38,152 nucleotides of DNA from Minisyncoccia bacterium (GTDB taxonomy: Bacteria; Patescibacteriota; Minisyncoccia; SW-4-49-11). Under the pieces are notes generated by a model, which saw nothing but the letters and a program-made list of their open reading frames with translations, did no database searches and was not told the DNA's origin. The stretch lies in assembly GCA_044356725.1 (NCBI GenBank), contig JBIKVS010000010.1, positions 1 through 38,152 of the forward strand. Reading direction: 5' to 3'. Positions 2,635-25,894 of this stretch are shown in pieces; the first letter of the stretch is position 1, and each line of letters starts with the position of its first letter. A program made the position numbers and the translations under genes.

Positions 2635-4137
<1,503 letters not shown>

Positions 4138-14995: not shown

Positions 14996-15034
14996 ATATA
15001 TCTATATTAGATTAAAAATAATTAATTTTAATTG

Positions 15035-15105
15035 TTCGAATGCAGGGACTCGAACCCCAATTGCTGGTGCCAGAAACCAGCGTCCTACCGTTAGACGACA
15101 TTCGA
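15035..15105 (-). tRNA. tRNA-Gln(CUG), CCA not encoded
   Basis: Acceptor TCGAATG/CATTCGA, anticodon arm CTGGT-TTCTGGC-ACCAG, T arm GGTTCGAGTCC. Upstream promoter TTGAAT-17-TATAAT. Confidence 0.93.
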
Positions 15106-15200: not shown

Positions 15201-15457
15201 GTAGGGGCGACCTTTAAGTCGCCTGTTTTTGTCCTCCCTCCCCTGTCGCAAATAGGATTTGCTCCTGTGAAACCTCACGGTTTCCCAACCTTCCTCCACG
15301 GAAAAACTACCGTTTTCCCGACCCCTTTCCCAGACTTGCAGTCTAACTACGGGTACTCCCACTCCCTCCTAAGGGAGACAAAAATACCAACCAACTGTCC
15401 TCCTTTCTACCTACGGCAGATAAATGGAGGAGGTGGCACGAAGTGCGGGTGGTGGAC
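15201..15457. repeat. Composite REP-like array including copy A of a ~155-bp multi-hairpin element (15228-15382)
   Basis: GTAG REP at 15201; 15228-15382 aligns with 25692-25845; a further CACGAAGTG-type repeat at 15397-15457. Confidence 0.85.
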
Positions 15458-15504
15458 TAGTCTAAAAATTACATTCAAGAGGGGCATTTTTGAATTTCAT
15501 ACTT

Positions 15505-17118
15505 TTATTTTAATCTTATTTTTTCAAAATAATTGTTTAATTCTTTATAAAACTCGCCATTTACTGCTAAATCTTTTACAAGCTCTCCTTCATAATCATC
15601 GAACTTCATCATAGCTGCACTGGTGTCTACATCAAAAATTTCACTTGGTTTTACAGCTGGTTTGGTATCTGAGATTCCATCCCAAGAATTTATACTAAAT
15701 ATTCTAGTAAGCCCAATATCCCAAGTAGGATCTAAGATAATCCATTTATTATTTATCAAGACCTCTAGCCAAACATGTTCTGCATTATCATTATGTTCGG
15801 CTTTCATTACCTCCTCTGGAATATTTAACTGACTCCATAAAAATGTACATATTCTATATCTACATTCTAAACCTTCTGATTCTAATAGATTTTTGAGTAG
15901 TTCAACTTTATACAGACAACTCCCCCCATACTCACCTTCTGTCTCATCTAAGGCTAAGGGTATTCTATAAGGTATATCTCGAATTTGATTAAAAATTTCT
16001 ATTAAATTATTTATTTTCATAATTACCAAACCCTCTGGGTCAAGATATAATCTGCCTATTTTATAATCCGCATAGCCTTCTGGTCTGTTATTATTAACCG
16101 CATATTTACCTTCTGGAGGATTGGGTATGCTATGCACAGTTTTGAATTGATTATATAACATCACAGTTCTATCGGCATTATAATGCTCATGATAATAACT
16201 TGCTGGACCTTTTATCTGATGATGTACGAAGACTTCCCAATTAATTTGCTCAGTTATAAATTCTATATATGGACCATGATCCCCATAGACTACTCTCTCA
16301 TAGCCTATAGCTAAAATTTTTCCATTTTTATCATAAAATACAAATTCATTTGACCCTTTTTCTGGTAAATTATATTCTTTTTCTATTCTCTGACGGTCTC
16401 GCTCACGATTCGGACTATTGACTGTGGAATAGAATTCACTAGGCTTAGGTGTGGCTATAGGTAAATCCATCCCAACCGCCTGCCAAGACTGATTTAATAG
16501 TTTGTCAAATTCTGCTTTAGATGTATTCTCCAGCTCGATGTAGAATTTGTGTGGATTTGGAGTGTTTTCTTGAATATTATCTTGTACATTAAACTTGGGG
16601 TTCATCCTTAAAATAACATCTTTACGGTTTGGATATTCCTTCATTCCATCATTTGTAAACCCAAAGGAAGTATATAGATTTATAACATATTGATTCCAAA
16701 CTGCTGAGTTATTTTGAATACTATAATTAACAGATCCTTTTAGATGGTAAAATTTTATATTAAGTTCTAACCATAGTTTCAATAACTGTTTGGCAATACC
16801 TTGCCTTCTATAATTTGATTTTACAGCTAATTCAGATATATATATAGTATTTTGGGGATAGAGATTATTATTTTCTGATTGCCTTTCATAGGCTATAATT
16901 ATAGCTATTGGTGTTTTATTATCAAAAACTATAAGACTATGCTCCCATTTCCCATAGAATATTCTATCTTTTTTATAATCTGCTAAAATATCTTGCTCTT
17001 TATATTCAACTAAAGGAATATCATTGACTAAATTAGTTATTTGTTTACTATATATTTTAGCTATATCTTTATCTAATTTATATACAATGTATTTTCCAAT
17101 TTGTCCAACTTCTTTCAT
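15505..17118 (-). CDS. Three-domain fusion: GNAT acetyltransferase + uncharacterised domain + transglutaminase-like domain
   Basis: LAVKSNYRRQGIA..LY.SFGF (GNAT); central GYERVVYGDHGPYIEF...GYADYKIG; C-terminal Cys (SCLYK), His (EHVWLEV), Asp (LDPTWD) pattern. Confidence 0.75.
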   Translation of the reverse strand: MKEVGQIGKYIVYKLDKDIAKIYSKQITNLVNDIPLVEYKEQDILADYKKDRIFYGKWEHSLIVFDNKTPIAIIIAYERQSENNNLYPQNTIYISELAVKSNYRRQGIAKQLLKLWLELNIKFYHLKGSVNYSIQNNSAVWNQYVINLYTSFGFTNDGMKEYPNRKDVILRMNPKFNVQDNIQENTPNPHKFYIELENTSKAEFDKLLNQSWQAVGMDLPIATPKPSEFYSTVNSPNRERDRQRIEKEYNLPEKGSNEFVFYDKNGKILAIGYERVVYGDHGPYIEFITEQINWEVFVHHQIKGPASYYHEHYNADRTVMLYNQFKTVHSIPNPPEGKYAVNNNRPEGYADYKIGRLYLDPEGLVIMKINNLIEIFNQIRDIPYRIPLALDETEGEYGGSCLYKVELLKNLLESEGLECRYRICTFLWSQLNIPEEVMKAEHNDNAEHVWLEVLINNKWIILDPTWDIGLTRIFSINSWDGISDTKPAVKPSEIFDVDTSAAMMKFDDYEGELVKDLAVNGEFYKELNNYFEKIRLK

Positions 17119-17232: not shown

Positions 17233-17826
17233 TTAGCTGGTCGTTGTTTTATTATCTGCTTTTGCTTCATCTTTACTAATTGAAGTCCAATTTACACTAA
17301 AGGCTAAAATAAGTTTCATTGAATATAAAAGTATTACTATTTGGAGCAAATTGTCGGAATAATTTAATATTGGAGTTAGAATTATACACAAAAGTAAAAG
17401 TGTCACAGCAATTATTCTTTGGGTATACTGATTTTTTAAATTCAAAACAATTATTGAGCTTGTCAAAGTCAATAATGATATGCCCATTATAGCTAATGAA
17501 TCACTTGGATAAATCCAAATTAGAATTAAAGGCTGTAAAATATGAAAGAAAATAAACAAGTATCTCTTTCTTAATGACTCAAAATAATAATTGTTTGCTC
17601 CTGTCGTAAAGTTTGCAACAACACCTCCCCCAATGTCGAGAGCCAAGATGGTGAGGATAATTTTTTTAATTGTTGATATGTCTACATTCCATTTCAGTAT
17701 CATTGTCAGTGTTGCAAATGAAACAGAGCAGATAATTATTGCCAACAAATCAAATCTTGTTGTTTCTCGACCGAAAAGTTCAACTAGAAACTTATTTACT
17801 TGAATTTTCTTATTTTGCATATTCAT
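17233..17826 (-). CDS. Multi-pass membrane protein, hypothetical (cassette-like gene)
   Basis: 197 aa with about 6 TM segments and a DIGGGVVANFT motif. Confidence 0.8.
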   Translation of the reverse strand: MNMQNKKIQVNKFLVELFGRETTRFDLLAIIICSVSFATLTMILKWNVDISTIKKIILTILALDIGGGVVANFTTGANNYYFESLRKRYLFIFFHILQPLILIWIYPSDSLAIMGISLLTLTSSIIVLNLKNQYTQRIIAVTLLLLCIILTPILNYSDNLLQIVILLYSMKLILAFSVNWTSISKDEAKADNKTTTS

Positions 17827-17844
17827 TATTTTATTGTCTTTTTA

Positions 17845-17872
17845 CAGTAACCACATACGCAGTGTTAGCTGA
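17845..17872 (-). other. Collapsed attC-like site (R'' box joined almost directly to next R'-like box)
   Basis: Minus strand TCAGCTAAC-ACTGCGTATGTG-GTTACTG; AGCTAAC is complementary to the GTTAGCT core at the 5' end of the same cassette (18519-18525). Confidence 0.55.
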
Positions 17873-17921
17873 TGTAATGTAGATTTTTCTTTTGGCGACA
17901 GCCAAACAAATAAAAGAGCAA

Positions 17922-18455
17922 TTATTTTTCGTCGTTTTTTGGAATCCAATAATCTCTAAATGTCCATGTTGTTCCTCTGGCCGTTGTTTTCTCATATTCT
18001 CTATGGACTTTACCACCAAGTGACTCTGCTAATTTACAACTTGATTTATTCGCAACCGCACAAGGCCAGAGGATATGACCATATTCAAGATGCTCTTCAG
18101 CCCATTGCTTAAGAGCTGCTGCGGCTTCTCTGCCATAACCGTGACCATGAGCAGATTTTTTTAGCCATCCACCCATTTCAGGATTTTCTTCTTGGAGATC
18201 TTCCAGAGCCATACAGCCAATAAACTCTCCAGTTTCTTTTAGCAAAATAGCCATGAATAACTGCACGCCTTCTTTCATTTCAGTTTCACGATTTTTCATC
18301 CGTCCTTTTAAAATTTCTAGACTTTCTGGCGGGCCATAGTTCATATATTTAATGACTGGATCACGATATTCTAAAAAAATATTCTCCGCAAAATCTACAT
18401 TTCCAGACACTAATAGCAGTCGCTCTGATTCTATTTTTACTTTGCTTAAATTCAT
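17922..18455 (-). CDS. GNAT N-acetyltransferase, RimJ/RimL family (cassette gene)
   Basis: IESERLLL, GEFIGC, HGHGYGREAA and N..S.KLAESLG motifs. Confidence 0.9.
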   Translation of the reverse strand: MNLSKVKIESERLLLVSGNVDFAENIFLEYRDPVIKYMNYGPPESLEILKGRMKNRETEMKEGVQLFMAILLKETGEFIGCMALEDLQEENPEMGGWLKKSAHGHGYGREAAAALKQWAEEHLEYGHILWPCAVANKSSCKLAESLGGKVHREYEKTTARGTTWTFRDYWIPKNDEK

Positions 18456-18521
18456 ACTAAAAAAATAATTGCTCTTTTATTTTATGTCCGAAGGAGCAAG
18501 AAAGATATAAGTTATCTCAGC

Positions 18522-18659
18522 TAACACAAATTTTTGCGAAGTTCGACTATTAATCGCAAATTAAATGTATTTATATAATATCATTTTTAATTATTTTATA
18601 CCAGTGTATATAAATTATATATAAATATATGATTAGGAATTTTTTAATTTCATATTTTA
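18522..18659 (-). repeat. 138-bp direct repeat copy 1; attI-like site ending at a GTT core
   Basis: Aligns without gaps to 19886-20023 with about 11 mismatches by hand count; similarity stops at GTGTTA|G. Confidence 0.85.
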
Positions 18660-18701
18660 CTACTATGTACTTACAATATTATAACATATTTTAACTTCCC
18701 A

Positions 18702-18739
18702 AAACAAAAAAGTCCTTGCAATGATCTACTTTCCCCACT
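18702..18739 (-). repeat. Perfect 38-bp duplicate of 5S rRNA 3' end plus trailing T tract (att-like)
   Basis: aaacaaaaaagtccttgcaatgatctactttccccact is identical to 20538-20575. Confidence 0.92.
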
Positions 18740-18751
18740 TTTTCAAAAATT

Positions 18752-19147
18752 TTAATATCTATCCTTAATATATTTAAGAACTTCTATATCGTGGTCAATA
18801 ATTTTTAGCCCATCAATTTCTGAAAGATGAAACCAACCAAGATTTTGACCTTCACATAAAGTGAGTTTTTTACTAGGATCATATTCTTCCATAAAAATAT
18901 GTTTTTCGTTAGTTTCGTTTTTCCACAAAAAATCTTGCTTTAATATTAATCTCGGGTTTTGGAGAGTGTAATTCAACTCTTCAAGTGTTTCTCTCCTAAC
19001 GGCTTTTTCAGGAGTTTCACCAGCTTCAATACCTCCACCGAAAAAAGCCCAATATCCTGGTAAGTTTTTTGCATCCTCAGTACGATGCTGAAGCAATATT
19101 TTTTTGTCTTTATCATACAATATGATAATAGCTAAGTTTCTTGCCAT
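18752..19147 (-). CDS. NUDIX hydrolase
   Basis: Nudix box [22 protein letters not shown]. Confidence 0.93.
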
Positions 19148-19193
19148 ATAGAAATTCTTAAATTTAAACTTAAATTTTACTTGATGGGCAGAT

Positions 19194-19259
19194 CACATAA
19201 AAAGTATACAAGAAAAAAGAAGCTTTTGGAAGTATATTTTGTATAGTTGCTGTTATGTG
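19194..19259 (-). other. Degenerate attC-like site
   Basis: Minus strand CACATAAC-AGCAAC-TATACAA...TTGTATA-CTTT-TTATGTG; the gene stop codon lies inside ACATAAC, which is complementary to GTTATGT at 19883-19889. Confidence 0.6.
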
Positions 19260-19837
19260 CTGGGCGGTGTTTCCATGATATTTATACCTTTTGATTTTAA
19301 ATAAATGTAAAAATCAGAATAATTTACAATATCATTTTCAAGAACAGCTTCATATATATCAGTACTATAAAATTCTTTTCGATAATTTATTTGCTTATAA
19401 CATTTAGATTTAATATCAAGAATTATTTCCCTATTGGATTTATTTAGTAAATTGCATATTTTAGAGGTATATGAATTTAATTTTTCGAATTCATTTTCAT
19501 TGATATACCAAATATCAATTTTCCATTTATTATTATAAGAATCTTTAAGATAAATTCCCCAGTATAAACCAACAGGTAAATGCTTTGCTTTTAATAAGTA
19601 TTCATTTCTCCAATGCATTTTCGAAGGAGTAAAATGGGATTCAATTTGTTTCCCTAATTCGAAAAATTGTTGTCTGGATATTTCATTATTTACAAGATAA
19701 ATATCTAAATCTCTCCATGTCATCAGATTGAGTTTATAGCTACCATGCAGATTTACAACACCATATTTTTCGAGAATATTGTGTAATTTATTATGGTATA
19801 GAATATTGTCGGCTTCACTTTTTAAAATATCATTCAT
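19253..19837 (-). CDS. Pol-beta-like nucleotidyltransferase-fold protein (cassette gene)
   Basis: hGSY..nLMtwrDLDI motif and a later WKIDIW strand. Confidence 0.7.
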   Translation of the reverse strand: MNDILKSEADNILYHNKLHNILEKYGVVNLHGSYKLNLMTWRDLDIYLVNNEISRQQFFELGKQIESHFTPSKMHWRNEYLLKAKHLPVGLYWGIYLKDSYNNKWKIDIWYINENEFEKLNSYTSKICNLLNKSNREIILDIKSKCYKQINYRKEFYSTDIYEAVLENDIVNYSDFYIYLKSKGINIMETPPST

Positions 19838-19885
19838 AAAAATAATCCATAAATTATTGAATCCGTTTCAAAGCTGTCTTGTACA

Positions 19886-20023
19886 TAACACTAATTTTTG
19901 CGAAGTTCGACTATTAATCGCAAATTAAATGTAGTTATATAATATCATTTTTAATTATTTTATTCTAGTATGTATAAATTATGCATAAATATATGATTAC
20001 GAAGTTTTTAATTTCATACTTTA
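19886..20023 (-). repeat. 138-bp direct repeat copy 2; attI-like site ending at a GTT core
   Basis: See copy 1; ends GTGTTA|TGT. Confidence 0.85.
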
Positions 20024-20097
20024 ACATAATTATTATATTTAATTATATCGTATAATTTTATATACCCCATAATAATACATAAGTTTGTAAATATATA

Positions 20098-20126
20098 TTG
20101 ACATTTTTAATATTTTATGGTATAAT
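20098..20126 (+). promoter_or_regulatory. Consensus sigma70 promoter of orphan gene
   Basis: TTGACA-17 nt (ending TGG)-TATAAT, perfect consensus. Confidence 0.85.
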
Positions 20127-20153
20127 GACTTTTGTAAATTTGAGGAAACTCTA

Positions 20154-20477
20154 GTGCTTTTATCAGAACAACCTGAATACCACGAAATGATTCGGGGTAT
20201 TCTCGAAGATGGTCCGCTCTCACCGAGAAGACTACTCGAAAAAGTTATTTTGGATACCAGTGGATGCAATCCCAACAGTGAATTTGGTATCCAACATGCT
20301 CTAGAATGCTTTCTGGGATTCTCGATTCCAGAAGGTGAAGAGGAAGGATTTGTATTCCTCCAGGGAGATTTGGTAAGAGCAACCACAATTAGTTATGACA
20401 TCCTTCTCAAGGATAGTCAGTCTATATGGAATGATATTTGCGACATTCCAGACGTAGAAATACCACATCAGACTTGA
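20154..20477 (+). CDS. Hypothetical acidic protein (orphan module)
   Basis: GTG start with GAGGA SD, own promoter and terminator; 107 aa. Confidence 0.7.
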   Translation: MLLSEQPEYHEMIRGILEDGPLSPRRLLEKVILDTSGCNPNSEFGIQHALECFLGFSIPEGEEEGFVFLQGDLVRATTISYDILLKDSQSIWNDICDIPDVEIPHQT

Positions 20478-20503
20478 TACTTCACCACTCTCCAAGCATT
20501 CCC

Positions 20504-20535
20504 ACCTCAGTCAGCAATGGCTGGGGTCTTTTTTT
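20504..20535 (+). terminator. Intrinsic terminator
   Basis: ACCTCAGTCA-GCAA-TGGCTGGGGT followed by C and a T7 tract. Confidence 0.8.
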
Positions 20536-20546
20536 ATAAACAAAAA

Positions 20547-20659
20547 AGTCCTTGCAATGATCTACTTTCCCCACTAGGAGTATCATCGACTCACAGAGGC
20601 TTAACTTCTAGGTTCGGAATGTAACTAGGTGGACCCCTCTGCGATAAATCACAAGGACA
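20547..20659 (-). rRNA. rrf: 5S ribosomal RNA
   Basis: Terminal helix GTCCTTG/CAAGGAC, CCGAAC loop and GAAGTTAAG motif; lies downstream of 23S. Confidence 0.95.
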
Positions 20660-20770
20660 TTTTTGTTCTCGAACACAAGATTATCTAAAAAAGATAATCT
20701 TATGCTCCAGAATTGGTGTAAATTTAGGTAATGCAATACTACATTCTCTTGAGTATCAATCAAAAGTTAA

Positions 20771-23780
<3,010 letters not shown>

Positions 23781-23962
23781 TAAATTCTGATTCATACTTT
23801 ATTGGTGAAAGTAGTAAAATTGCATTTACCTAAATTTACTTGTGAATGAACCCTCTTATAGAAACAGATGATAATATCTCAAAGGTTGAACTTTAAGAGG
23901 TCATCTCTGTCGCCATATTGCTCTCTTGGTGAGCTGAGTGTGAAGTTGCGAGTACGATATTT

Positions 23963-24163: not shown

Positions 24164-24192
24164 TTGACAAAAACCGCAAAATATGCTATGTT
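24164..24192 (+). promoter_or_regulatory. sigma70 promoter of orphan gene
   Basis: TTGACA-17 nt (ending TGC)-TATGTT. Confidence 0.7.
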
Positions 24193-24273
24193 TGTGAAGC
24201 ACACCCAGCTTGATTGCAGGTCTTGAAGCAGAAAGACCTCCCAAACTGGACTCGTCCCTTGGAGGGCAAAACA

Positions 24274-24747
24274 ATGTTCGTTTCCAATCTCTGCGTCCGT
24301 ACCGGACGAATCCTCAGTCTCATCGACTGGGAAGAAGTGAGCAAGATCGTGTTCCACGGTCTGATCGCCCTGATGGTCGGCATCTGGGTTGCCGGGGAAA
24401 CTCTCGGCCACTGGGTGCATCGCCTCAACGACTGGCTAGCCCATCATTGGGTTCAGCTGATTGTGCCCCAGACTTCCGTTGAAACGGAACAGGCACTGAT
24501 CATCGTCGAGGAAGTCTCGACCACTACCCTACCCATCGCCGTCGAGGTTGAGCCGAAGCTCCCTCCAGCAACAACTGAAGTGGTCGAGACTCCAGTACTT
24601 GACGAGCCCCCGCCAACATCACCATGCAAGCGCCGCAGGCAGTCCGCACCACCAACAGCGGTGGTAGTGACTGAAGAGCTTGAGCTCTTGCAAAAACGAC
24701 GCCCTCATGGTCGCCGAGCTCACGAGAGACGTCATGAGGCTGCTTGA
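24274..24747 (+). CDS. GC-rich hypothetical protein, one TM helix, Pro/Glu-rich and Arg-rich tail (orphan module)
   Basis: ATG 24274 preceded by GGAGGG; 157 aa; promoter and terminator flank it. Confidence 0.8.
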   Translation: MFVSNLCVRTGRILSLIDWEEVSKIVFHGLIALMVGIWVAGETLGHWVHRLNDWLAHHWVQLIVPQTSVETEQALIIVEEVSTTTLPIAVEVEPKLPPATTEVVETPVLDEPPPTSPCKRRRQSAPPTAVVVTEELELLQKRRPHGRRAHERRHEAA

Positions 24748-24809
24748 CAATCAATATACCAAGACAAGAGAATATAATTCTCACCATTACCACTAACCCA
24801 CCCTAGAGA

Positions 24810-25506: not shown

Positions 25507-25601
25507 ATTTTGAATAAACGATCTAGACCACCTTCTGAAAAACAAATAAATGTTCATGCATTATGAGGAGAAAGAAATACACAAAATATTAGATAAGTGA
25601 C

Positions 25602-25645
25602 TATCCTCCTTTGGAGGATGTGGAACGAAGTGCCGGTGGTGGATA
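25602..25645. repeat. REP-like repeat (ACGAAGTG family)
   Basis: TATCCTCC..GGAGGATGTGGAACGAAGTGCCGGTGGTGGATA, similar to 14952-14995 and 15397-15457. Confidence 0.65.
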
Positions 25646-25691
25646 AAGTTTAATATTATTACAAACAAGAGTTTATTTTAGTATTTCAAAG

Positions 25692-25845
25692 TTTGTCCTC
25701 CCTCCCCCGTCGCAAATAAGATTTGCTCCTGTGAAACCTCACGGTTTCACAGCCTTCCTACACGGGAAAACTACCGTTTTCCCGACCCCTTTCCCAAAGG
25801 CTAAGGCCTTTTTACGGGTACTCCCTGCCTCCAAGGGGAGACAAA
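25692..25845. repeat. Copy B of ~155-bp multi-hairpin element
   Basis: Collinear with 15228-15382; closed by TTTGTCCTCCC...GGGAGACAAA. Confidence 0.85.
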
Positions 25846-25894
25846 GTAAACTTCAACCTTAAAATATTACCTATGATGTTTCTCATCTAATTAA

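Follow-up and report, generated by a model that had tools for sequence, protein, structure and literature searches.

Cis-mobilisable elements (CIMEs) are att-flanked elements that lack recombination genes. Homology-facilitated illegitimate recombination (HFIR), described from natural transformation of Streptococcus pneumoniae, Acinetobacter baylyi, and Pseudomonas stutzeri, is presented as a RecA-dependent process in which one end of the incoming DNA is homologous and the other is joined illegitimately, and that inserts about 1 kb of foreign DNA (PMC3240628). In displacement arrays, as outlined in a second source, a new module enters beside a conserved anchor and pushes the old one outward, leaving an orphaned 3′ end (PMC5361080). 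For Saccharibacteria, natural competence is stated in one published account (PMC10187176). Here, we compare with such systems a locus from a lake-dwelling Minisyncoccia bacterium (genome G000), in which a fragment of the 5S rRNA 3′ end (the stub) and the intact 5S rRNA gene enclose an islet of approximately 1.8 kb with three ORFs. The window, that is, the whole stretch of DNA analysed, is 38,152 nucleotides long.

The two copies of the direct repeat around the islet (18702–18739 and 20538–20575) were 100% identical over 38 nt in a repeat search of the window, and each consists of the last 27 nt of the 5S rRNA gene and an 11-nt T-rich trailer (Table 1). A pattern search with up to 3 mismatches found just these two copies in the whole 897,185-base genome, with 0 matches in the reversed-sequence control; blastn gave E-values of 3.3e-12 for the genome and 1.1e-17 for the 7 kb on the left side. 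These searches bear out the sequence-only reading, which had described a perfect 38-bp duplication of the 5S 3′ end and its T-rich trailer around three ORFs. Base 38 of the repeat (T) is G or A in 8 of the 8 sister genomes that hold the sequence, and the block that is truly shared could be one base shorter (37 nt), the T being part of the T-run that follows. The intact gene matched Rfam RF00001 at full length (model positions 1–120; 59.3 bits against a threshold of 38). Rfam found nothing 5S-like around the stub, the stub alone gave no match at E ≤ 10, and on its own it formed no hairpin (fold z-score, +0.28). The stub is neither a gene nor a stand-alone hairpin, and a role as the terminator of a NUDIX operon was ruled out by the same fold result. 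The suggestion that the duplicate might be the remnant of a decayed second rrf comes close to our reading, but the stub corresponds to a truncated, displaced 5S 3′ end rather than to a decayed whole gene. The earlier step from the lack of mismatches to a recent event is weak, because 4 other species share 37 of the 38 nt and the sequence was therefore already conserved before the event; the identity does mark the stub as still undecayed. In the Rfam alignment, the joint between the stub and the islet (18739|18740) coincides with the base that opens the terminal loop of the last 5S hairpin, and it is 12 nt behind the NUDIX stop codon.

Table 1. Features of the islet and its flanks, in order of position in the window.
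Feature	Position	Strand	Basis or remark
tRNA-Gln(CTG)	15034..15105	-	ARAGORN and Rfam; marks the left end of the variable interval, whose other end is 5S
197-aa ORF	17233-17826		found in G000 only (9 genomes compared)
GNAT acetyltransferase, 177 aa	17922..18455	-	Pfam Acetyltransf_3, 3.2e-19; strain-specific cargo, outer (older or resident) allele
D1a, 138-nt promoter-like block, outer copy	18522..18659	.	upstream (minus strand) of the GNAT gene
42-nt spacer	18660..18701	.	native sequence behind the 5S trailer in sister species
Stub	18702..18739	-	trailer 18702-18712 (11 nt) and last 27 nt of 5S, 18713-18739
NUDIX hydrolase, 131 aa	18752..19147	-	Pfam NUDIX (PF00293), 1.9e-18, 67.2 bits against a threshold of 21.1; foreign cargo, judged by sequence comparison
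Pol-beta-type nucleotidyltransferase-fold protein, 194 aa	19253..19837	-	fold prediction and conserved motif; cargo
D1b, inner copy of the promoter-like block	19886..20023	.	upstream (minus strand) of the 194-aa ORF
ORF107 consensus sigma-70-type promoter	20098..20126	+	12/12 hexamer matches, 17-nt spacer, TG extension; consensus match only
ORF107, small genus-specific protein	20154..20477	+	convergent with 5S; native 5S neighbour
ORF107 intrinsic-terminator-like hairpin	20504..20527	+	10-pair stem, then T-run; fold z-score -1.9
Trailer and intact 5S rRNA gene	20538..20656	-	gene 20549-20656; repeat copy 20538-20575
23S rRNA	20771..23777	-	Rfam RF02541; possible homology anchor

To the left of the islet, the GNAT acetyltransferase gene is bracketed by a 67-nt imperfect inverted repeat (17862–17929 and 18461–18527), and no orthologue of this gene was found in 16 other genomes of the family, in which the best matches were 27–31% identical. 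A second direct repeat, missed in the sequence-only reading, is the promoter-like block D1, with one copy outside the islet (D1a) and one inside it (D1b). The two copies are 92% identical over 138 nt (11 positions differ) and are the only ones in the genome. Blocks homologous to D1 adjoin 5S in G002 and G005, but D1a and D1b are closer to each other than to those of G002 (87–89%) or G005 (84–88%), as expected, together with their restriction to two genomic copies, of two alleles of one locus. Both D1 and the inverted repeat around GNAT were rejected as multi-copy mobile repeats, given that the genome holds local copies only. A decayed older stub beside D1b was also sought and rejected: neither the local alignment of 20024–20160 with the spacer and stub (62 of 300 shuffles reached the score) nor that with a virtual spacer and 5S (156 of 300) was significant.

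The NUDIX hydrolase is 82% identical in amino acids and 84% in nucleotides to a sequence from a Ca. Uhrbacteria MAG, and only distant paralogues, with no orthologue, were found in 16 genomes of its own family. Judged by these comparisons, it is foreign cargo, the MAG being of another lineage. The DNA similarity of its homologues to the window ends 2 nt past the stop codon, and the loci examined elsewhere (30 of 30 in metagenomes and 8 of 54 in genomes) were without 5S, D1, or the stub. Pol-beta-superfamily nucleotidyltransferases carry a signature in which G-S is followed by D-x-D and by a further carboxylate D. The 194-aa protein belongs to no Pfam or NCBIfam family (no Pfam model reached its threshold) and has 441 homologues, the best of which are 51–52% identical; in 33 aligned sequences, G32 S33, D43 L44 D45, and D108 are invariant. 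Its structure model (pLDDT, 94.2) matched the CCA-adding enzyme, Cid1/URT1, poly(A) polymerases, and CdnC in a Foldseek search of the PDB (TM, 0.5–0.59), with a Foldseek probability of 1.00 against the CCA-adding enzyme and TUTases, and its neighbours in the Atlas include PF01909 clusters. The motif and the modelled fold agree in showing a Pol-beta-superfamily nucleotidyltransferase fold. For ORF107, searches returned no Pfam or NCBIfam family, no Atlas lead of at least 0.9, and no PDB match at E ≤ 0.001, and the pLDDT of its structure model was 69.

A profile search located ORF107 in 4 of the 12 genomes of the genus (G000, G005, G008, and G009), in a single copy each and always beside 5S. In G005, G008, and G009, all of which lack the stub, it lies 63–90 nt from the 5S trailer, and the joint between its terminator and the trailer (20537|20538) is native. 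On the other side, spacer and trailer adjoin each other natively (18701|18702) next to a complete 5S gene in G004, G002, and G011, in which the contiguous matches are 89% over 103 nt, 87% over 69 nt, and 83% over 65 nt, respectively. No second piece of 5S was present at 8 sister loci (longest chance match, 14 nt), and among the 9 genus genomes that hold the 38-nt sequence, only G000 has two copies. Homology to 8 sister genomes starts at 20501–20538, which means that the repeat's left edge just marks the point at which the alleles of the genus become alike. On this comparison, half of the “islet” (ORF107 and the D1 block) is native beside 5S in sister species without the duplication, and a single new joint, 18739|18740, which had no counterpart in any relative, is enough to account for the structure. 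The tRNA-Gln-to-5S interval, 1.6–6.2 kb long in 8 genomes, is a hot spot of mosaic structure, and tRNA-Gln lies at this distance from 5S in 7 sister genomes. The 197-aa ORF and the GNAT, NUDIX, and 194-aa genes all occur in G000 alone within the set of 9 genomes, which includes G002, whose examined stretch stopped short of any tRNA-Gln.

We propose that the stub is the leftover of two alleles of the hypervariable tRNA-Gln-to-5S interval that were stacked by homologous exchange and one illegitimate joint, an explanation to which we give roughly an even chance. Read in the sense of 5S, one allele would have comprised 5S, trailer, spacer, D1, and GNAT, and the other 5S, trailer, (ORF107), D1, nucleotidyltransferase, and NUDIX. 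The DNA of one allele was probably taken up from a related strain. Homologous recombination would have occurred at one end, either in the rRNA operon or on the side of tRNA-Gln and the 537-aa gene, and the illegitimate joint would have formed at the other end; alternatively, the incoming DNA may have been circularised and have entered by a single crossover within the shared 38 nt. The only new joint would have arisen 27 nt inside the 5S gene of the other allele, just behind NUDIX. The intact 5S gene would stay functional, and the stub would have no function. The net effect would be the capture of two foreign nucleotide-metabolism genes beside the rRNA operon, each gene block having its own copy of D1. 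A single joint is novel and every other adjacency occurs natively in some allele, which is the pattern of HFIR or of a displacement scar; an illegitimate joint of this type would also be expected to have a short microhomology (3–10 bp). Two contigs from public lake metagenome runs hold intermediate forms and count in favour of allele stacking: in X20, the 194-aa ORF and D1b (1 mismatch in 536 nt) lead to the trailer and 5S without ORF107, and in X19, a contig of depth 68 contains 31 nt of the stub and NUDIX with 2 mismatches and covers the joint 18739|18740. The repeat, the joint, the native character of the two flanks, the foreign source of the cargo, and the missing recombinase are established by the comparisons. 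The event is reconstructed rather than observed, because no donor genome with the inner allele and without the stub was recovered, and we infer the recombination route, the donor, and the direction.

The genome of G000 (897 kb, 99%-complete) encodes one Xer-like tyrosine recombinase (PF00589) and 0 serine recombinases (PF00239), and no integrase or transposase was found in the islet or among the 28 scanned ORFs of the 38-kb contig. Xer/dif-type integration was set aside given that the repeat is not palindromic, as read by eye against the dif consensus. The known target-site duplications of transposases and casposases are far shorter than 38 nt, and a long duplication of this kind was rejected, no such gene having been found. 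No phage, plasmid, or viral contig matched, and an origin of the islet from any of these was also rejected. The recombination and DNA-uptake proteins RecA, DprA, and ComEC, which would suit HFIR, scored over the cut-off in the genome, but they did likewise in non-competent control genomes, so their presence is not specific. Over 20538–23900, a stretch that begins at the 5S trailer and extends some 120 nt beyond the 23S 5′ end, 21 of 3363 aligned columns differ between G000 and G004. The rRNA operon showed no clear mosaic that would mark a recombination tract; the only incongruent cluster (21293–21323) is a G004-specific change, and the max-chi-square permutation p of 0.004–0.016 for a tract in 23S was discounted as the product of five clustered G004-specific sites in one helix. 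A literature search at the level of titles and abstracts returned no relevant report of 5S as an integration site.

The sequence-only reading had seen in the locus the attL/attR signature of an element that integrates into the 3′ end of an RNA gene. The 38 nt would then be the attachment sites of a 1.8-kb integrase-less islet, inserted at the 5S loop by a recombinase acting in trans (the Xer-like protein or one encoded on an unassembled or lost element), and stubs at tRNA genes would have formed likewise. We consider this unlikely. The geometry does resemble that of tRNA and tmRNA islands, with a full gene, an insert, and then a 3′ stub with the original flank, and the first loop base of the last 5S hairpin is also the first base of the repeat. 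The tRNA genes offer a parallel: in G000, 4 of 39 have an exact copy (23–57 nt) of their own 3′ end 143–172 nt downstream, beginning 16–18 nt before the gene end, and 3 of these 4 stubs enclose one conserved core of approximately 100 nt. The ~100-nt elements follow tRNA-Gly, -Leu, and -Glu in G000 and tRNA-Gln in sister species; tRNA-Gln stubs of similar geometry occur in 6 of 7 sister genomes, and the stubs start in the T-loop in the three aligned. Recurrence of stubs at a hairpin or T-loop position would not be expected of random illegitimate joints and counts against allele stacking, and it is these tRNA stubs that keep a site-specific mechanism alive, albeit at a low probability. One could extend the idea to a lineage-wide insertion at the terminal hairpin loops of stable-RNA genes, which would restore each gene by duplicating its 3′ end and trailer, but this seems doubtful; it is similarly improbable that the ~100-nt tRNA elements are miniatures and the 5S islet their cargo-bearing product, with 5S a genuine attachment site and the recombinase supplied in trans. 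What became of the attL/attR claim is that the direct-repeat geometry stood, whereas the recombinase and a foreign 5S-proximal end did not: apart from the one Xer-like gene, neither the islet, the contig, nor the 99%-complete genome encodes an integrase, the 5S-side end (ORF107 and D1b) is native in the stub-less G005, G008, and G009, and D1b is homologous to the flank outside the islet. Furthermore, the two copies are confined to one of the 9 genus genomes, among which the borders do not recur with other cargo, and the tRNA-linked core has no copy in the 5S islet. The alleles of G004, G002, and G011, in which the spacer is contiguous with a full 5S gene, provide the empty sites that were to be sought, but they are equally expected under recombination. 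No circle or restored-site joint was seen among the contigs of 4 lake runs, which, as 31-mer contigs, cannot show absence. The reading that had been offered only as the alternative to att sites, in which the allele of a related strain is integrated in tandem through homology-facilitated recombination, is the account favoured by the single new joint and the native flanks.

Two further explanations dispense with a second allele or with the linkage itself. In an in-situ duplication, a block of ~230 nt (5S 3′ end, trailer, spacer, and D1) would have been copied around NUDIX and the nucleotidyltransferase, after which the copies diverged and ORF107 replaced the inner spacer. The 38-nt repeat and D1 are indeed both duplicated in the same order and orientation, and the X20 contig, with the 194-aa ORF, D1b, a short spacer, and 5S, has the predicted form. 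Nevertheless, the D1 copies differ at 11 of 138 positions and the 38-nt copies at none, which at 8% divergence has a chance of ~0.04 (0.92^38); the spacer shows no significant similarity to the beginning of the ORF107 module (score reached by 62 of 300 shuffles); and several further steps (cargo insertion and the ORF107 swap) are needed, which makes this scenario quite improbable. Very improbable, in our estimation, is an assembly chimera in which two strains were joined at the repeat, so that the GNAT-side flank and the stub-NUDIX unit belong to different chromosomes. Several related strains do co-occur in the lake runs, and the public contigs were built at k = 31, which cannot bridge a 38-nt repeat, so that they leave the linkage of flank, stub, and NUDIX on one molecule unconfirmed. 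However, the stub-NUDIX joint is real in the independent run X19, and an error in the left linkage would not remove the 5S stub from the side of NUDIX. In the run X5, the modules from 17500 to 20917 occur with 0 differences at an even depth of 4.4–6.4, except for one short contig (18782–18947) at a depth of 2.4 and a coverage gap at 18717–18781; X20 and X21 cover the stretch only in part and are uninformative on absence. The word sizes usual for final assembly exceed 38 nt, and the repeat falls below them.

If allele stacking is correct, the locus would be a clean natural case of the capture of foreign genes beside the most conserved sequence of the genome in an uncultured ultra-small bacterium, and the 3′ side of the rRNA operon would be a hot spot of gene accretion. 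Such accretion bears on how reduced genomes without mobile-element machinery gain accessory genes. If site-specific integration were correct instead, 5S rRNA would join tRNA and tmRNA as an integration target, and the tRNA-linked mini-elements would mark a new insertion system. Allele stacking would also be a warning that the duplication of an RNA-gene 3′ end is not automatically an att site.

In integrase-borne islands at tRNA and tmRNA genes, a tyrosine or serine recombinase gene usually adjoins one att site, and the DNA is foreign up to both sites, the attP arms being element sequence. Like these islands, the 5S locus has a direct repeat that is built from the RNA-gene 3′ end and begins within a hairpin loop; one side carries the complete gene, and relatives have empty-site alleles. 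Unlike them, it lacks an integrase, its gene-proximal end is native in relatives, and it shows neither recurrence in the genus nor a link to phages or plasmids. It resembles CIMEs in its att-like repeats around integrase-less cargo, although no parent element or trans-acting integrase was found in the G000 genome. An orphaned, displaced 3′ end beside an anchor is also seen in the C-terminal and effector displacement arrays (Rhs, CDI, and the effector-immunity clusters of the Vibrio cholerae T6SS), but the displaced gene here is an rRNA gene rather than a toxin gene, the stub is single, and there is no immunity logic. Unlike HFIR, the 5S case was deduced by comparative anatomy, the organism being uncultured, involves no deletion of resident genes, and has a donor that was not found; as in HFIR, one novel joint together with conserved rRNA or flank homology accounts for the structure.

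The 38-nt direct repeat reported in the sequence-only reading was confirmed, with positions 18702–18739 identical to 20538–20575 over the whole length. Because the 5S rRNA match from Rfam is full length (model positions 1–120, 59.3 bits) and lies at 20549–20656, directly downstream of the 23S rRNA gene, the repeat consists of the last 27 nt of the 5S gene, rather than the 28–29 nt first counted, plus an 11-nt T-rich trailer. The host genome (897 kb, 33% G+C, 99% complete; the window is one entire 38-kb contig) contains these two copies and no others at up to three mismatches, and a chance origin was ruled out genome-wide (E = 3e-12). The copy at 18702–18739 (hereafter, the stub) starts at the first loop base of the last 5S hairpin; by itself, it was not recognised as 5S by Rfam and had no stable fold (z = +0.28). 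The lack of mismatches had been read as a sign of a recent event. It does show that the stub has not yet decayed, but four other species share 37 of the 38 nt, and it therefore says little about age.

The layout of the locus is given in the table. A 138-nt promoter-like block, missed in the sequence-only reading, occurs both outside (D1a) and inside (D1b) the islet, as we call the stretch between the two 38-nt copies, with 92% identity and no further copies in the genome. This pair alters the picture, in that the islet includes a copy of its own flanking sequence.

Features of the 5S locus in the order of the rRNA operon (minus-strand sense), and sites of tRNA 3'-end stubs
Feature	Position	Strand	Remark
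23S rRNA, 5S rRNA, trailer	20771–23777 (23S), 20549–20656 (5S)	-	operon-side start
ORF107 cassette (small genus-specific gene)	20098–20527	+	next after trailer; self-contained, convergent with 5S
Cassette terminator	20504–20527
ORF107	20154–20477
Cassette promoter	20098–20126		12/12 consensus match
Block D1b	20023–19886		follows ORF107 cassette
194-aa ORF, then 131-aa NUDIX hydrolase			past D1b
Stub (27 nt of 5S plus trailer)	18739–18702		12 nt beyond NUDIX
42-nt spacer, then block D1a	18659–18522 (D1a)		past stub
GNAT acetyltransferase			past D1a; bracketed by 67-nt inverted repeat
197-aa membrane-like ORF, 537-aa GNAT/transglutaminase gene, GC-rich repeat, tRNA-Gln			far end
tRNA stubs, host genome	C19:15385–15600 (L131 3055–3301), C10:36840–37090, C9:69440–69666, C10:22279–22550		other contigs
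tRNA stubs, sister genomes	L018 1708–2134, L020 309–571, L021 381–643, L022 779–1036		fetched loci

On its left side, the D1 block ends sharply (window 18517–18527 and 19881–19891; L016 ~5540; L017 ~4870) at one and the same motif, AACAC, in four alleles (two in the host genome, one each in G002 and G005), past which the alleles have unrelated sequence and carry different genes. The block also contains, 9 nt in from this edge, a 6-nt inverted repeat whose arms are 14 nt apart. The edge may reflect selection on a promoter or operator, or it may be a preferred breakpoint. The inverted repeats around the GNAT gene (17862–17929/18461–18527; 22-nt core 100% complementary) and the NUDIX gene (18769–18789/19146–19166; 21 nt, 90%) both pair the start-codon region with the 3' end of the gene, and visual inspection shows the NUDIX pairing in a homologue from Candidatus Uhrbacteria (L067) as well. 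Elsewhere in the window, the 16S rRNA gene (2636–4137) is unlinked from the 23S–5S unit (20549–23777); the two are on one strand, separated by 16.4 kb that includes genes for MetRS, GreA, PriA, RuvB, and others. Just upstream of the 23S rRNA gene, a 600-nt patch (24180–24780) of 55–60% G+C, partly conserved in G004 and G005, contains an ORF (24214–24747) with no Pfam family and a minus-strand fold (z = -3.6, 20 shuffles) with no Rfam match.

When the locus was compared across eight congeneric sister genomes, both kinds of flank were found behind a complete 5S gene. The spacer that follows the stub lies directly behind it in G004, G002, and G011 (89%, 87%, and 83% identity), with D1 also present there in G002, whereas the ORF107 cassette lies there in G005, G008, and G009, adjoined by D1 in G005. 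In a profile search, ORF107 was found in just four of 12 genus genomes, each time as a single copy adjoining 5S, with one weak match among ~390 genomes from elsewhere in the class. No second 5S piece was seen at any of the eight sister loci, and among the nine genus genomes containing the 38-mer (up to three mismatches), two copies were found only in the host genome. On these comparisons, both the outer-end and the inner-end adjacency of the islet are native to the genus, and only the joint 18739|18740 is new. Homology to the sister genomes begins at 20501–20538, and the repeat has its left border simply where the alleles all begin to match.

Synteny of tRNA-Gln and 5S was retained in the host genome and in seven of the eight sister loci (the stretch fetched from G002 contained no tRNA-Gln), with a gap of 1.6–6.2 kb and mosaic gene content. 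The 197-aa ORF, the GNAT gene, the NUDIX gene, and the 194-aa ORF were confined to the host genome among the genus genomes compared. The NUDIX protein is 82% identical (84% at the nucleotide level) to one from a Candidatus Uhrbacteria MAG, where its context lacks 5S, and the 194-aa protein is a member of an unnamed ~193-aa protein family (441 matches, best 51–52%) with a predicted Pol-beta nucleotidyltransferase fold (pLDDT 94). Hence the cargo has a foreign origin; its surrounding frame does not. The 537-aa gene (15505–17118) fuses a GNAT domain, a conserved middle, and a transglutaminase-like end; in sister loci (L017 3480–4558; L018 4698–5776; L022 3108–4216), it takes the form of two neighbouring ORFs or is missing the GNAT part or the end. 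Between it and tRNA-Gln, at the far edge of the variable interval, lies one copy of a modular GC-rich dispersed repeat of short perfect hairpins (15228–15505 and 25571–25888; z = -5.4 on the plus and -3.7 on the minus strand; no Rfam match), with ~60 blastn pieces in the host genome; each of the 11 other genus genomes also has many.

Parts of the stretch occur in 24 public lake or freshwater metagenome runs, four of which were aligned to the window in detail using contigs built from 31-mers. An X19 contig (depth 68) extends from the NUDIX gene over the joint and includes 31 nt of the stub, with two differences, diverging from the window past the NUDIX start; the joint is thus genuine and is not confined to this assembly, and an assembly chimera is highly improbable. 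In X20, ORF107 is skipped: a contig with one mismatch to the window in 536 positions passes from the 194-aa ORF through D1b to the trailer and 5S, with ~57 other letters (by subtraction) between D1b and the trailer. Every module was present in X5 with no differences at an even depth of 4.4–6.4, except for one short contig (18782–18947) at 2.4. No excision or circle joints were among those listed in the four runs, although 31-mer contigs can neither bridge the 38-nt repeat nor prove absence.

The interpretation of the repeat as attL/attR was not supported as stated, given that the inner end of the islet is native in sister species and the 28 contig ORFs that were scanned include no integrase, transposase, or other recombinase. 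The genome encodes one tyrosine recombinase, nearest to XerC/XerD, and no serine recombinase, and neither the islet nor the 194-aa family resembled anything in phage, plasmid, or viral-contig collections. Site-specific insertion by a recombinase acting in trans nevertheless stays alive through a recurrent stub geometry. Four of the 39 tRNA genes in the host genome (Gly, Leu, Glu, and Arg) have their own 3' end and local flank copied exactly (23–57 nt) 143–172 nt downstream; such copies also occur at tRNA-Gln in six of seven sister genomes (G009 has two tandem units) and not at the host tRNA-Gln. The host copies begin 16–18 nt short of the end of the gene, a position within the T-loop for the three aligned (Gly, Leu, and Glu), and thus, like the 5S stub, in a hairpin loop. 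One geometry at both tRNA and 5S genes argues for some site preference. However, the Gly, Leu, and Glu copies enclose a conserved ~100-nt core, dispersed through the genus and folding well (z = -3.4; no Rfam family), that is absent from the 5S islet, and we consider insertion in trans unlikely. In-situ duplication seems more doubtful still, and some probability was assigned to none of these readings.

The tRNA-linked unit itself (tRNA gene, local terminator hairpin, core enclosed by a short stem of T-arm-like sequence, 3'-end copy) may represent either a miniature integrative element or an RNA module linked to tRNA genes. Separately, a pair of full tRNA-Gly genes in direct orientation, 2.6 kb apart on another contig of the host genome (C19:12943–13016 and 15527–15600), has downstream flanks 96% alike and encloses ORFs of 247 aa and 495 aa (the latter with a weak T4SS_pilin match), suggesting a tandem duplication of a gene-plus-tRNA unit. 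A 300-nt part of the 495-aa ORF is 86% like DNA found ~340 nt downstream of the first gene of the pair (L131 5–304), which may be part of a paralogous gene.

We favour the alternative already raised in the sequence-only reading, homology-facilitated recombination with the allele of a related strain, because it accounts for a single new junction between native flanks. There is, in our judgement, an even chance that the 38-nt copy is a scar from the stacking of two alleles of the tRNA-Gln–5S interval in one chromosome. This could have occurred by homologous exchange in the conserved frame plus one illegitimate joint (homology-facilitated illegitimate recombination, HFIR; PMC3240628) or by a single crossover within the 38 nt of a circularised fragment; both routes would yield the observed structure with one new junction, leaving the former 5S 3' end as an orphan stub. 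The NUDIX-bearing block would somewhat more likely be the newcomer, because the spacer-type flank is found in G004, the sister whose rRNA operon is closest (21 differences over 3363 aligned columns). RecA, DprA, and ComEC are present in the genome, and natural competence has been reported in Saccharibacteria (PMC10187176). Scars of the displacement or HFIR type are already known, and the 5S 3' end is an unusual place for one. The 5S stub would be analogous to the orphaned toxin 3' ends left after displacement in Rhs and T6SS arrays, as described in PMC5361080.
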